Assembly: GCA_024636935.1 (NCBI GenBank)
Contig: JAGXGC010000004.1
Coordinates: 17,287-81,286 of the forward strand
Source of the DNA: Sideroxydans sp.
GTDB lineage: Bacteria; Pseudomonadota; Gammaproteobacteria; Burkholderiales; Gallionellaceae
Direction of reading: 5' to 3'
Length of the DNA stretch: 64,000 nucleotides
The translations under genes were made by a program, and so were the position numbers. The notes beneath the pieces were generated by a model that did not search any database, had not been told where the DNA came from, and saw only the letters and a program-made list of their open reading frames with translations. This document shows positions 4,653 to 51,167 of this stretch, in pieces (the stretch's first letter is position 1; each line of letters opens with the position of its first letter).

Positions 4653-4760
4653 GAAAGTCTCACCCTTTCATCTTCCGATTCGGTATCTGCGGCAACCGGT
4701 CGACGGGATCTATCTCCAGATAGAAACGGATCGTCTGAGTCGACCAAGTATTAAGCTGCA

Positions 4761-5075
4761 TCACTTCCGCTCGATACGCTCCAGCAGACTCTCCAGTTGT
4801 AGTGCCAGCGCTTCCCACATAGCCATTGGGCCGGCCTTCTTGATCTTCTCCTCCTGCGACTCACCGGAGGATCCTTGCTTCAATGAAGCGATATGCTGGG
4901 CAAGTCTGTCGCGATCACTTTTCACGTTTTCTATCTGTGAATGAATGTTGGAGTCGGCTGTGCTTCCGGAAAAACCTGTCGTGGCCCGCTCCAGAAGTCC
5001 ATCGATATGCTTCAGCTGTGCTTCGAATCTATTAGTCTGCTGTTCAAAGATCTTGTTGGCATCAGTCATCTTCAT
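4761..5075 (-). CDS. Small helical hypothetical protein
   Basis: 104 aa ORF co-oriented with its neighbours, helical/coiled-coil-like composition; no family recognised. Confidence 0.7.
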   Translation of the reverse strand: MKMTDANKIFEQQTNRFEAQLKHIDGLLERATTGFSGSTADSNIHSQIENVKSDRDRLAQHIASLKQGSSGESQEEKIKKAGPMAMWEALALQLESLLERIERK

Positions 5076-5193: not shown

Positions 5194-6045
5194 TCATTCT
5201 TTAGCCCAGCTTGCGGCCACCTTCGCATACGCTGCGGCCCGTGGATTGCCTAGCTTGCGGTAATCGTCGGCCACCATTTGATAAGCGTTCGTTCGCAGAT
5301 GGATATCCGCGGTATCTGGGCTGCTCACGCTACCGGCCATCGCAGGTATGCGCAGTTTGATCCCGGTATCGATCAAGTCCGGGTTGTGGTGAGACAATTC
5401 TGGTCTGTTCTCCGCATAGATGATCGGCCACCAATACGGATCGCCCAATCTGCGCTCAGCGATCGACCACAAGGTATCGCCGGGGGACACGACAAACTCT
5501 GTCATTGCAGCGATTGGCGGCGTGATTGTCGGATGCACAGGCGCATCAAGGACGATTGCTGGCGTTTGTTCGGTGTGAACCACTACGGCCTTAACCGGCA
5601 ACACCTCGACCACTTCCTGATTGGACATCCAACGCGTAGCCATGAAGCCAAGCAAAATCAGCAGCAATACCAACAGCAAGATCCAGGCACCAGTTCGGGT
5701 ACGCCAAGTTTTTTTGTCAGGAGTGAGTTCCCTGATACGCAGCAGACGGAATGGTCCGTTGACCGCGAAGCGCAATGCGCCATAGGGACGAAAGTGGACG
5801 CGTGTGTGCTCGGGGATCGTTAACGGCTCACCGGAATTTGGATCATGCCCCGCCTGTTCATCGACATGGGTCGTATGGAAGCGGCCAAAGTGATACAGAT
5901 GAATATCGCCGCCCGCCTCCAATTCCTCACTGATGGCCTTCGCGAATTGATGGATATAAGTGTCTGCTTCGACATTGCTGACCTTGGCACGCCTGGCCAC
6001 CAGCGCCGCAAAGTCGTGGAGCGCGATCTTGTTGTCATCGCTCAT
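5194..6045 (-). CDS. HU/IHF-like DNA-binding domain + transmembrane helix + LysM domain protein
   Basis: HU-like N-terminus (IHLYHFGRFH...GHDPNSGEPLTIPEHTRVHFRP), hydrophobic stretch AWILLLVLLLILLGFMA, LysM (VSPGDTLWSIAERRLGDPYWWPIIYAENR...NPDLIDTGIKLRIP). Confidence 0.88.
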   Translation of the reverse strand: MSDDNKIALHDFAALVARRAKVSNVEADTYIHQFAKAISEELEAGGDIHLYHFGRFHTTHVDEQAGHDPNSGEPLTIPEHTRVHFRPYGALRFAVNGPFRLLRIRELTPDKKTWRTRTGAWILLLVLLLILLGFMATRWMSNQEVVEVLPVKAVVVHTEQTPAIVLDAPVHPTITPPIAAMTEFVVSPGDTLWSIAERRLGDPYWWPIIYAENRPELSHHNPDLIDTGIKLRIPAMAGSVSSPDTADIHLRTNAYQMVADDYRKLGNPRAAAYAKVAASWAKE

Positions 6046-6347
6046 GTCGGCGCACCTGCTTCATCCGATTCGATATCGTAGACTTCCTCACGCAGCACAG
6101 TGCCCGTGCGAAACACCGGCACGCGCCGTTTGGGAAAGATCGCAAAGTCATGACTGGCTGGCCGATAACCGCGATGCTCCGCGTACGTCGCCGTGTCGAA
6201 AGTGCCAAGGTGTGGGATGGTCACCGCATGCCCGGCCCGGAGCAGCTCACGAATCTCCCGCAGCGTCGCCTTCAGTAAGCGATGCGACTGAGTGATCGGT
6301 ATGCCCAACTCCTGTGCGACTTTTTCAACAAGCTCTGATTGATCCAT
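6042..6347 (-). CDS. HU family DNA-binding protein (divergent)
   Basis: ELVEKVAQELG...VTIPHLGTF...RRVPVFRTGTVLREEV matches the HU/IHF fold; overlaps the next gene by 4 bp. Confidence 0.88.
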   Translation of the reverse strand: MDQSELVEKVAQELGIPITQSHRLLKATLREIRELLRAGHAVTIPHLGTFDTATYAEHRGYRPASHDFAIFPKRRVPVFRTGTVLREEVYDIESDEAGAPT

Positions 6348-6466
6348 GAAAGCACCCTAGCGTTTGGTTTATTTGATGCGCGGAAACAAGCAACACGCCC
6401 TAGCTATCGATACGCTAAGCACTGTGTGTAATTGAGGTGACTTTATTGGAACGCGTCGATTGCATC

Positions 6467-6482
6467 CGTGCGTTGACGCACA
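6467..6482. promoter_or_regulatory. CRP-like palindrome CGTGC-N6-GCACA upstream of the HU/N-ATPase genes
   Basis: Seen in sequence; the same motif recurs in other intergenic regions. A second inverted repeat TGATCAC-N3-GTGATCA lies at 6484-6500. Confidence 0.6.
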
Positions 6483-6584
6483 TTGATCACATGGTGATCA
6501 GGTAGGCAGGCATCGCGACGACGTGACAGTGGAGCTCCAATTAGAGAGGAGGTAGTGGCGTTAGCCACTTAATGTCATGCTCGA

Positions 6585-15168: not shown

Positions 15169-18100
15169 TACCCCTCAAGAAAATGTGCAACGCTCGCCAG
15201 CTCCTGTTCGAACTTTGGCAACAGCGCCGCCAGCGCTTTATTATTGCCCGCCTTGCCCGCCTGTTCCATTCCCGCGCACAACTCACCCAGCGCCATCGCC
15301 CCCACCGAGCGCGACGATGATTTGAGCTTGTGCGCCAACGCACCGGCAGTGGCTGCCTGACCCGACGCGCAGGCGGTGCGCAGTTCCGCCGCTATCTTGG
15401 CCGCGCTGAGGCGGAAGTCGTGCAGGAACTCGCGGATCGCTGCCTCGTCATCACCGATCAACGCCTTGAGCACATTCACATCCACAGGCAAGGGGGATGA
15501 AGCTTGCAGTCTGTTAACCATGGGGACATCTCCTTCATTCTCATGCGAGCCACGAGGTAGCCATTTATCCAGCATCGCTTTTAGGCTGACCAGTTGCACC
15601 GGCTTACTCAGGTAATCATCCATGCCGACTTCTCGGCAATGTGCGGCTTCACCTTTGAGTGCATTGGCAGTGAAGGCGATGATGGGAATACGTGTCTTGC
15701 CGGTTTCGGCGGAACGGATGGAGGTGGTCAGCTCGTAGCCGTCCATCTCCGGCATGTGCAGGTCGGTGATCAGGATGCCGTAATCGCCGCTCTGCCACAG
15801 CTCCAGCGCATCGCGACCATTACCGACGATATCTGCGGTTTGCCCGAGCAGCTTGAGTTGTTGCAGGACGACTTTTTGGTTGATCTCGTTGTCTTCGGCG
15901 ACCAGGATCAGGCTGCCTTGTTGGCGCGCTTCTTCGCGGGACAACGGCGTCAATACCGTTTTGACTTCACCAGTTACTGCTTGCCAGTCAGACACCTTAA
16001 CCCTGCCGGAAGCGACCGCCACCGCCTTCAGCAAAACCTTGCGAGAAAGCAAGTTGCCATCTACCAGCACCAGATCATCTTCCTCTACACGCGGCTTGCG
16101 GCGCTGCCCGCGCCGGATGACGACAAAGTGTGTTTGCTGTGCAGGGTGGGCGCGCGCTGCGGCGCGCAGCTGATCCAGCGGCAAGTTGGCGGCGGCGGTG
16201 TCGACCACCACGATGCACATGCCGGGTGGACGCTTGGCTATCCATTCCTTGACTGCCGCTAATTCCGCCTGCCGCTCGACCTTTGCACCCGCATGCACAA
16301 GATAGGCGCCGATATCATCGGCAAGACCCTCGCTACCTCCTGCCACCAGACAGTTCAGTCCGGCAACCAGACTGGGAGTGGCTTCCGGCTGCTCCGGCAC
16401 CCGTTGGAAAGCCAGGCGCACAATGAACACCGAGCCTTTGCCCGGTTCACTCTGTACTGAAATATCGCCGCCCTTGATATTTACCAGCTGCCGCGAGATA
16501 GCCAAGCCCAGTCCGGTACCGCCATAGGTGCGGGTTGTGGATGAGTTGGCCTGGGAAAAGGGCGTGAACAACCGCGCCTGCGTTGCAGCGTCCATACCGA
16601 TGCCGTTATCGGTCACGCGAAACTCCAGCTTCACCTGTTCTGCTGTGCTTTCTGTCGGCAAGGTGCGAACCGACACCTTGCCCTGCCTCGTTTGCCCGCT
16701 GGAAAACTTGACCGCGTTATTGGTCAGGTTGACCAGTATCTGGCGCAAGCGCCCGGGATCGCCCATGACTTGCGCAGGAATGCCGGGGTCAGTGAACAGC
16801 GTCAGCTCCACATCTTTGTGCAAGGCGATGTGGCTCATGGTTTCGCATGCCGACTCCACCACATCGGCAATAGACATGGGCACGCTTTCGATCTGCAGCT
16901 TGCCCGCCTCGATCTTGGAGAAGTCGAGAATGTCGTCGATGATGGACAACAAGGCGAACGCCGAATCGTGGATGATGTTGGCCATCTCCGTCTGCGCACC
17001 ATTCAAACTGCTCTGCTGCAACACATCCACCATGCCGATCACACCGTTCATCGGCGTGCGTATCTCATGGCTCATGGCGGCAAGGAATTCAGACTTGGCG
17101 CGGTTGGCCTTCTCGGCTTTGAGCATGGCCTGCTCCATGGCAAGCGTGATGCGCTTTCGTTCGCGGATGTCGCGCAGAATGCCGGTGAAATAACGCGCCC
17201 CCTGTACAAGATATTCGCTGATAGAGAGCTCCATCGGGATGAGTTCGCCGCTTTTGCTTTTTCCTACGATCTCCCGCCCGATGCCGATGATGCGCGTCTC
17301 ACCGGTACGCATATGGCGATCCAGGTAGCTGTCATGGGCGGAATGGTCGGGTTCTAGCATGAGCATGGAAACGTTTTCCCCGATCACCTCATCGTGGCTA
17401 TAGCCGAGTATCTTCTCCACCGCCGGGTTGGCAGAAAGGATGATGCCTTGGTCGTTTATGGTGATCACGCAATCCATCATGTGATCGACCACAGAGCGGA
17501 TCTCTTCTTCCTTTTTACTTATGTCCAGATTGGTTTGTTCCAGCGCAGCAGTGCGCGACGATACTTTTTGTTCGAGCTCTTCATTGAGCTGGCGCAGCGA
17601 CTCCTCAGCCTGCTTGCGGTCTTCGATCACGCTCAATAATGCGCGCCGCGATTGATTGGCGGCGGCTAGCAGCTCTTGCGCCAATTTTTCAGATGCCAGG
17701 ACTTCCTCGTTGCGAATCTGTTCCGTCAAGTCGGTTGCCACCAGACAGAAAACTGCGGATATCTCATGGATGAACAGATCGTTCACGGACAGCGAAACTG
17801 GGACCCGCGCTCCGTTTCCTGTGACAAGCTCAAGCTGAACGCGGCGCTTCCCGCCTGATCCATTGTCCAGCAACGGTTGAAGGATTTTCCGGCTGTCCGG
17901 TGCAATAAAGGTAGAGAACGTGGCGCCGATCACTTTTTCGAGTGGCGTCTTGAGTATCTCTGCAAAGCTCTGGTTGGCGTACAAAATGACGCCCTCCGCA
18001 GATAGGGTCAGCGCACCTTCGCTCATGTTTTCGATCAGCAACCGGTAAGACTGGTCGGTGCCTTTGAGCGTAAAAATCTGCGCGCCAGCCGCCCCAGTGA

Positions 18101-51014: not shown

Positions 51015-51030
51015 CGTGCGCTGCCGCACA
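51015..51030. promoter_or_regulatory. CRP-like palindrome CGTGC-N6-GCACA upstream of the Crp/Fnr gene
   Basis: Seen ~140 bp upstream of 51168; candidate autoregulatory site. Confidence 0.6.
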
Positions 51031-51167
51031 TACCCCACTGTCACAAGCCTACATACTTCATCTCTGAATCTTCTATCGGTGTATAACCGAACAATGATTC
51101 GCAGCTCTTTGTTTATCTGCGGCTTATCTGTATAAACATCTACAGCTGCAAAACCGAAGTCAACAAA

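Follow-up and report, generated by a model that had tools for sequence, protein, structure and literature searches.

Two overlapping genes on the minus strand of a 64,000-nt stretch of Sideroxydans sp. contig JAGXGC010000004.1 (the window, to which all plain positions refer) encode an accessory module in which a stand-alone HU-fold protein is paired with a second protein carrying an HU domain, a single transmembrane (TM) helix and a LysM domain. The preferred interpretation, held at a probability of roughly 45%, is that the two proteins build a cytoplasmic IHF-like heterodimer that is fixed in the membrane, anchored to the cell wall and conditionally expressed, with DNA as its most likely ligand. 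The tether idea as such is a hypothesis already published in 2017 (Burroughs, Kaur, Zhang and Aravind; PMC5499826), and the pair is a proteobacterial member of the proposed group with arginine-depleted arms.

The first gene is a 101-aa open reading frame (ORF, 6042..6347), followed by a 283-aa ORF (5194..6045), with the stop of the former and the start of the latter sharing the 4-nt overlap ATGA. An earlier interpretation of the same DNA, made from its letters and here called the sequence-only reading, had described two coupled genes at this place, encoding an HU and an HU-TM-LysM protein; both ORFs are present as described, and the architecture is borne out by profile matches, the TM helix and evidence for the LysM fold. 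The 283-aa product (the anchored protein) begins with an HU domain and continues through a basic juxtamembrane segment, a single TM helix and a spacer to LysM and a two-helix tail (Table 1). Both proteins lie above the 22.4-bit cut-off of Pfam PF00216 (Bac_DNA_binding). Their best NCBIfam matches are IHF alpha and IHF beta, at 33-39 bits (36-39 bits for the partner), which do not reach the equivalog cut-offs of 111-120 bits, and both score higher on these models than on the HU models. Since the genome also encodes canonical HU, IHFa and IHFb, the pair is an addition to this set. The canonical HU gene lies beside a second IHF-beta-like gene (C22:96164-96782), with IHFa on contig C14 and IHFb on contig C28.

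Table 1. Features of the gene pair, its leader and the candidate regulator in the window. Identities in the last column are mean pairwise values across the clade (38 loci for the partner); AF2, AlphaFold2; pLDDT, predicted local distance difference test.
Feature	Position	Strand	Evidence	Mean pairwise identity
Stand-alone HU/IHF-fold partner, 101 aa	6042..6347	-	PF00216, 56.1 bits	82%
HU domain of anchored protein, aa 1-100	5746..6045	-	PF00216, 61.2 bits	78%
Basic juxtamembrane segment, aa 101-118, LLRIRELTPDKKTWRTRT	5692..5745	-	Positive-inside signal	80%
Single TM helix, aa 119-137	5635..5691	-	Kyte-Doolittle 19-mer mean 2.61; AF2 helix 111-140	
Periplasmic Pro/Val/Ala/Thr-rich spacer (predicted location), aa 138-181	5503..5634	-	AF2 pLDDT <50	46%; length 31-73 residues
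LysM domain, aa 182-235	5341..5502	-	Profile, AF2 and Foldseek evidence	76%
C-terminal two-helix hairpin after LysM, aa 236-283	5197..5340	-	AF2 helices 245-264, 269-282	67%
Conserved noncoding leader/promoter region	6370..6530	-	73-83% identity, 25/43 related loci	
CRP/FNR-type palindrome TGTGCG-N4-CGCAC(G/A), TGTGCGTCAACGCACG	6467..6482	-	Columns invariant in leader alignment	
Predicted -10 hexamer TAAAGT	6440..6445	-	T116, T121 invariant and A117, G120 nearly invariant in leader alignment	
CRP/FNR-family regulator, 251 aa	51168..51923	+	HTH_Crp_2, 56 bits; cNMP_binding, 20.3 bits, below cut-off	

The single hydrophobic helix, GAWILLLVLLLILLGFMAT, is flanked by basic residues on its N-terminal side (IRELTPDKKTWRTRT) and not on its C-terminal side, and lysine and arginine are richer on the N-side of the helix in 146 of 161 family members. 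This positive-inside bias points to an N-in/C-out topology with a cytoplasmic HU and a periplasmic LysM, as the sequence-only reading had proposed. The basic juxtamembrane segment, which that reading had missed, is conserved as strongly as the HU domain. The LysM domain scores just below the 20.9-bit cut-off of Pfam PF01476, reaching 17.8 bits in the full protein and 20.4 bits as a fragment. Its identity is nevertheless confirmed by other profiles and by the predicted fold: a PHROG endolysin LysM is matched at E 1e-9, a PDB profile search matches the LysM domains of Kbp and TsaP, and the AlphaFold2 model shows a beta-alpha-alpha-beta fold, with strands at residues 182-185 and 230-233, helices at 192-200 and 203-216 and block-mean pLDDT values of 79-90. 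Foldseek fits this part of the model to LysM domains at root-mean-square deviations of 1.5-2.2 Å. The tail hairpin, likewise missed before, is modelled at block-mean pLDDT values of 88-94 and is conserved in the wider family, where a profile of LysM plus tail matches 373 HU-LysM proteins; an assignment of the hairpin as TPR was rejected, no Pfam match appearing even at E 10. From the fold and the periplasmic location, LysM would be expected to bind peptidoglycan.

The module is accessory in Gallionellaceae, where the anchored gene occurs in 8 of 121 species genomes (one of them, G060, with a truncated copy) and the partner in exactly the same 8, always adjacent. Across species-representative genomes, 43 of 44 loci have the partner gene immediately upstream, mostly with the 4-nt overlap, the lone exception beginning at a contig end; the frames are intact in 43 loci. 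Because of the translational coupling, the perfect co-occurrence and this adjacency, an obligate partnership of the two proteins is well supported by the genomic evidence. No third gene recurs within 3 kb of the pair across loci. Comparison of the segments in Table 1 reveals conserved domains joined by a spacer free in both sequence and length, the pattern expected of a physical connector, and the complex is clearly under selection. The G060 copy (L011, G060:C10:50170-50677) is decaying, with the partner matching to residue 93 and the anchored gene to residue 75.

In an alignment to HU, IHFa and IHFb of the same genome, both proteins keep the HU dimer-core residues F47, G48, F50 and F79 together with the arm-tip Pro63. 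The partner arm reads HRGYRP...FPKRRVPVF and keeps some basic residues; its columns for R55, R58 and R61 hold Y, H and Y, with the arginines displaced by one position (HRGYRP), and the C-terminal tail of the partner is acidic (YDIESDEAGAPT). The anchored HU domain bears the near-invariant clade motif HFGRFHTTHV.EQ.GHDPNSG.PLTIPEH.RVHF. Six to ten histidines are conserved in each anchored HU domain, most of them at positions specific to this clade in comparison with the wider family, and the partner arm holds conserved histidine as well. Structural modelling was extended to P0172, a relative that is a natural HU-HU-TM-LysM fusion and has HU-CCDC81_bac_2 among its precomputed Pfam matches. Both HU domains of P0172 fold in the AlphaFold2 model, the anchored-type HU domain resembles chains of HU and IHF (TM-scores of 0.6-0.7), and Foldseek aligned a single-chain IHF to the model over one HU domain only; the output is uninformative on domain pairing. 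P0172 is no clean fusion of partner and anchored protein, since each of its HU domains belongs to the anchored type. Another relative, P0137, carries four HU domains after N-terminal TM helices.

According to the preferred interpretation, the 101-aa partner would most likely pair in the cytoplasm with the HU domain at the N-terminus of the anchored protein, giving an IHF-like heterodimer. The single TM helix would hold this heterodimer at the inner membrane, and the flexible spacer of about 44 residues would link it to LysM and the helical tail on the peptidoglycan. Such a complex would couple the ligand of the HU-fold head to the cell wall. DNA is the most likely ligand, with contacts that would run mainly through the partner arm (HRGYRP, KRR), the retained proline tips and the basic juxtamembrane segment, and its binding would probably be weaker or more conditional than that of HU or IHF because the anchored subunit lacks the arm arginines.

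A noncoding leader of about 150 nt accompanies the pair in Gallionellaceae. An RNA element was considered for it and rejected, there being no Rfam match and one invariant 6-bp hairpin with no covariation, and the leader is read as a promoter/operator. The palindrome it contains precedes the pair at 25 of 43 related loci and occurs at 10 sites genome-wide against 3 for the reversed control, and at 7 sites in the window against 1.2 in shuffles. The CRP-like box that the sequence-only reading had placed upstream of the pair is consequently real, conserved and enriched. The generic CRP consensus TGTGA-N6-TCACA, tried as well, gives 22 matches in the window against 28.8 expected, which is not above chance. 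The hexamer TAAAGT sits 21 nt downstream of the palindrome; if it is the -10 element, the palindrome would be centred at -41.5, as in class II CRP/FNR promoters. A simple sigma-70 scan returned no full promoter in the leader.

The 251-aa CRP/FNR paralogue encoded in the window is a candidate binder of the palindrome. Its own box, at 51016-51031 and 152 nt upstream, is kept upstream of 6 of 12 orthologues, so autoregulation fits, and in one genome (G076) a paralogue of this regulator adjoins the pair. Other sites lie at window positions 15330, 27328 and 43966 and, elsewhere in the genome, at C14:57032, C14:57084, C18:82951, C18:85030 and C36:187430, five of the ten genomic sites falling within about 62 kb of contig C18. 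Genes preceded by the palindrome encode CsbD-like (two perfect sites), DUF4398 lipoprotein, ice-binding-like, Calx-beta surface and DsrE-like proteins, and in another genome iron superoxide dismutase (Fe-SOD). The palindrome probably marks the regulon of an autoregulated CRP/FNR paralogue. Because the same box precedes this paralogue as well as stress and envelope genes, the pair is probably switched on conditionally and would not serve as a housekeeping nucleoid organiser. In the mixed cross-phylum clade the box is absent, and a different leader with a sigma-70-like TTGAAG-16-TATCAT is found. Ten loci (L016, L017, L021-L025, L034, L035, L042) carry an extra segment of about 225-300 nt between leader and partner start, giving a leader-to-start distance of 286-368 nt versus 63; a short ORF in this segment clusters across 7 loci.

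Several findings weigh against a wall-anchored DNA-binding complex of this kind. In the anchored HU domain, aligned to E. coli HU-alpha and to HU, IHFa and IHFb of the same genome, V61, Q64 and H67 replace R55, R58 and R61, several other lysines are replaced too, and the domain has a net charge of -4, an isoelectric point of 6.1 and 9 histidines. The wider family retains the R58 equivalent in 128 of 139 members, unlike this clade. The canonical RxGRNPxTG turn is missing from the partner arm, and neither subunit carries the basic DNA-wrapping arm defined by R55, R58 and R61. In the AlphaFold2 monomer of the anchored protein, the HU part is modelled with low confidence from a shallow alignment. 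LysM domains are not always peptidoglycan binders, and Kbp, a close solved match, is cytoplasmic. The promoter reading, finally, depends solely on the predicted -10 element.

Because the arm arginines are lost and the anchored HU domain is His-rich and neutral to acidic, DNA binding by this domain is doubtful, and canonical DNA wrapping is not assured; the complex may bind DNA weakly or conditionally, or may bind something else. The sequence-only reading had proposed a heterodimer that tethers DNA to the cell wall across the inner membrane. Topology and obligate pairing speak for that proposal, and its DNA-binding part is the one thrown into doubt by the lost arginines and the net charge. A nucleoid-envelope tether is plausible, and for this clade it is less secure given the state of the arms.

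The same arms suggest that the HU-fold head may not bind DNA at all, the fold having been turned into a protein-binding module. The loss of all three arm arginines from the anchored subunit, the negative charge, the strictly conserved His-rich motif and the non-canonical partner arm all agree with this, and Burroughs et al. (PMC5499826) argue for such a shift within the family. Nonetheless, both subunits keep the position of the intercalating proline and the length of the arm, the partner retains HRGYRP and KRR, and no recurrent third gene within 3 kb could encode a ligand. This explanation is considered somewhat unlikely. A membrane-bound, IHF-like sequence-specific regulator in the manner of ToxR or CadC, whose periplasmic LysM and tail would report the state of the cell wall while the heterodimer bends or occupies promoters, is unlikely. 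Its appeal lies in the better scores of both proteins on IHF alpha/beta than on HU models, in the resemblance of KRRV in the partner to ARRVV of IHFa and in the accessory, conditionally regulated character of the pair, unlike an abundant housekeeping nucleoid-associated protein. No candidate operator common to all clades was found, however, and the leaders of the Gallionellaceae and mixed clades differ. The CRP paralogue accounts better for the palindrome, and the arms have few arginines of the kind that contact bases and backbone.

The histidines permit a further model, in which the His-rich head is a switch that binds DNA or a partner only when its histidines are protonated or metal-loaded, so that anchoring to the envelope would follow the metal or pH state of the cytoplasm. 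Six to ten conserved histidines per anchored HU domain, mostly at clade-specific positions, and the conserved histidine in the partner arm are compatible with it, as is the confinement of the clade to iron- and sulfur-cycling lineages; but composition is its sole basis, no known metal-binding motif is matched, and a shared habitat can account for the taxonomic spread. The model is very unlikely. A broader version is quite unlikely: here the arginine-depleted, His-rich heterodimer would be no constitutive DNA tether but a conditional wall-anchored switch responding to metal, pH or redox state, belonging to a stress or dormancy regulon of the CRP paralogue and travelling as a mobile module of promoter and two genes between phyla, among bacteria that cycle iron and sulfur. 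That the pair reflects chance adjacency or a decaying, functionless remnant is scarcely credible. The truncated copy in G060 would suit a remnant, yet the reading is already contradicted by the conservation pattern, with domains 76-82% conserved across phyla around a free spacer, as well as by perfect co-occurrence and intact frames in 43 loci.

The distribution of the pair was checked, as the sequence-only reading had suggested, and is patchy, with relatives of the few Gallionellaceae copies in contigs assigned to Zetaproteobacteria, Campylobacterota and Desulfobacterota. Full-length relatives with 50-62% identity come from metagenome-assembled genomes (MAGs) labelled Zetaproteobacteria, Sulfurimonadaceae/Helicobacteraceae, Desulfuromonadales, Desulfobacterales, Desulfurivibrionaceae, Thiohalomonas and Thiohalophilus; all cross-phylum relatives are MAGs, and the phyla are their labels. 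For the Gallionellaceae clade, too, the matches were MAGs throughout, and no named isolate was among them. In the tree, the cross-phylum relatives group as sister to the Gallionellaceae clade, the internal branches that separate the phyla are very short, and the clade is confined to lineages that cycle iron and sulfur. Five loci (L037, L038, L046, L049, L055) in MAGs labelled Desulfobacterales, Desulfurivibrionaceae, Thiohalomonas and 'Proteobacteria' share noncoding leaders, located about 130-180 nt upstream of the partner gene, that are 82-87% identical and contain the promoter-like TTGAAG-16-TATCAT, which suggests that promoter and two genes moved across phyla very recently. The short inter-phylum branches and the shared upstream noncoding DNA together point to a module that has recently spread horizontally among bacteria living at redox interfaces of iron and sulfur.

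The surroundings of the pair are not conserved. A functional link to the neighbouring N-ATPase, DUF389 or 104-aa genes was considered and rejected, as none recurs at other loci; every longer locus has different neighbours, so these genes are incidental. The association with the N-ATPase genes made by the sequence-only reading is not supported, the adjacency being kept at no other locus, and neither is a placement of the pair in an island: the pair shows no GC anomaly, and no evidence ties it to an island. Insertion boundaries were not recovered, the comparison with an empty site in the same genus losing synteny at the response-regulator gene. Searches of plasmid and phage collections with tblastn gave no match to the pair, and PADLOC reported nothing meaningful as a defence system.

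The 104-aa gene (4761-5075, minus strand) begins 118 nt after the pair and encodes a coiled-coil protein with a weak match to the sll1863 family of stress proteins; a terminator-like hairpin at 4729-4745 follows it. It may be co-transcribed with the pair in this window and does not go with the pair at other loci. In a Sideroxydans MAG (L012:1651-6254), the pair directly follows genes for transaldolase, phosphoketolase and acetate kinase. A genome of the same genus without the pair (G124, L098:9172-9456) holds a different HU-like gene of 94 aa, 25% identical to the partner, which adjoins, on the opposite strand, the orthologue of the response-regulator gene flanking the pair here.

Understanding how chromosomes are positioned relative to the envelope is limited beyond a few model systems, and a protein reaching from DNA through the inner membrane to peptidoglycan would connect them in a new way. 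With about 2000 clusters at 50% identity, the HU-TM-LysM family is large, and no experimental study of any member was found in the literature searched. The present clade offers a minimal unit of two genes that brings its own leader and should move readily into a laboratory host, and its naturally arginine-less arms set a DNA-tether model directly against a protein-adaptor model, while the candidate regulator and its box hint at when the pair is expressed. Distinctive here are the arginine-less, His-rich arms, the movement across phyla together with a leader, and the probable connection to a CRP-paralogue regulon.

A profile search of 1.84 billion representative sequences returned 2034 proteins at E<=1e-10, many of them matched from HU through to the tail, and most of the best 150 family matches share the layout of HU, TM helix, LysM and tail. 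Named members include Balneolaceae and Rhodohalobacter, the latter available in culture and with a 97-aa HU gene directly upstream. Tested with hidden Markov models of the two subunits, the Rhodohalobacter partner reaches 78 bits with the partner model against 32 with the anchored one, and the anchored HU 99 bits with the anchored model against 36 with the partner one; this clean separation implies that each subunit type is an old lineage of its own, as in IHF. Matches to HU-CCDC81_bac_2 reach 17.4 and 19.4 bits here, below the cut-off of 35, and even weak matches occur in only 24 of 117 family members. The pair is consequently classed with the family defined by architecture and operon, not with the HU-CCDC81 Pfam model.

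Burroughs et al. (PMC5499826) described bacterial proteins in which HU is joined to a disordered segment and a TM helix, with LysM or SPOR at the C-terminus, noted that single-HU forms share a two-gene operon with an HU protein that stands alone, and suggested from computational analysis that they tether the nucleoid to the envelope. The HU-CCDC81 clade is mainly found in Bacteroidetes and the FCB group, being sporadic in Proteobacteria, which agrees with the statement in the sequence-only reading that fusions of HU, TM helix and cell-wall-binding domain lie mainly outside Proteobacteria; a shift of the HU fold to protein binding was proposed for eukaryotic CCDC81 and the two-HU forms of Bacteroidetes (PMC5499826). 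The present pair has the same N-terminal HU, disordered segment, single TM helix, LysM, two-gene operon and predicted topology. It differs in that the stand-alone HU is the first gene, that both proteins score as classical PF00216 at 56-61 bits, that the anchored arm of this clade is His-rich and without R55, R58 and R61, and that the module is patchy across phyla.

IHF likewise consists of two paralogous HU-fold subunits, IhfA and IhfB, that are both required; IHF models are the best-scoring for the pair, and proline-tipped arms are kept. Unlike IHF, the pair scores far below the equivalog cut-offs, has one membrane-anchored subunit and largely lacks the arm arginines. Noc and RacA-DivIVA of B. 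subtilis (cited in PMC5499826) and Rv3852 of M. tuberculosis (PMC8233713) share the proposed role of holding DNA at the envelope, but their folds are unrelated and none crosses the membrane to bind peptidoglycan. FtsN and DamX (SPOR) and TsaP (LysM) have a periplasmic peptidoglycan-binding domain, as is predicted for the anchored protein, and in FtsN and DamX this domain sits on a flexible linker after one TM helix, as here; whereas the cytoplasmic parts of FtsN, DamX and TsaP are short peptides interacting with the divisome or a secretin, the anchored protein carries an HU fold in this position.

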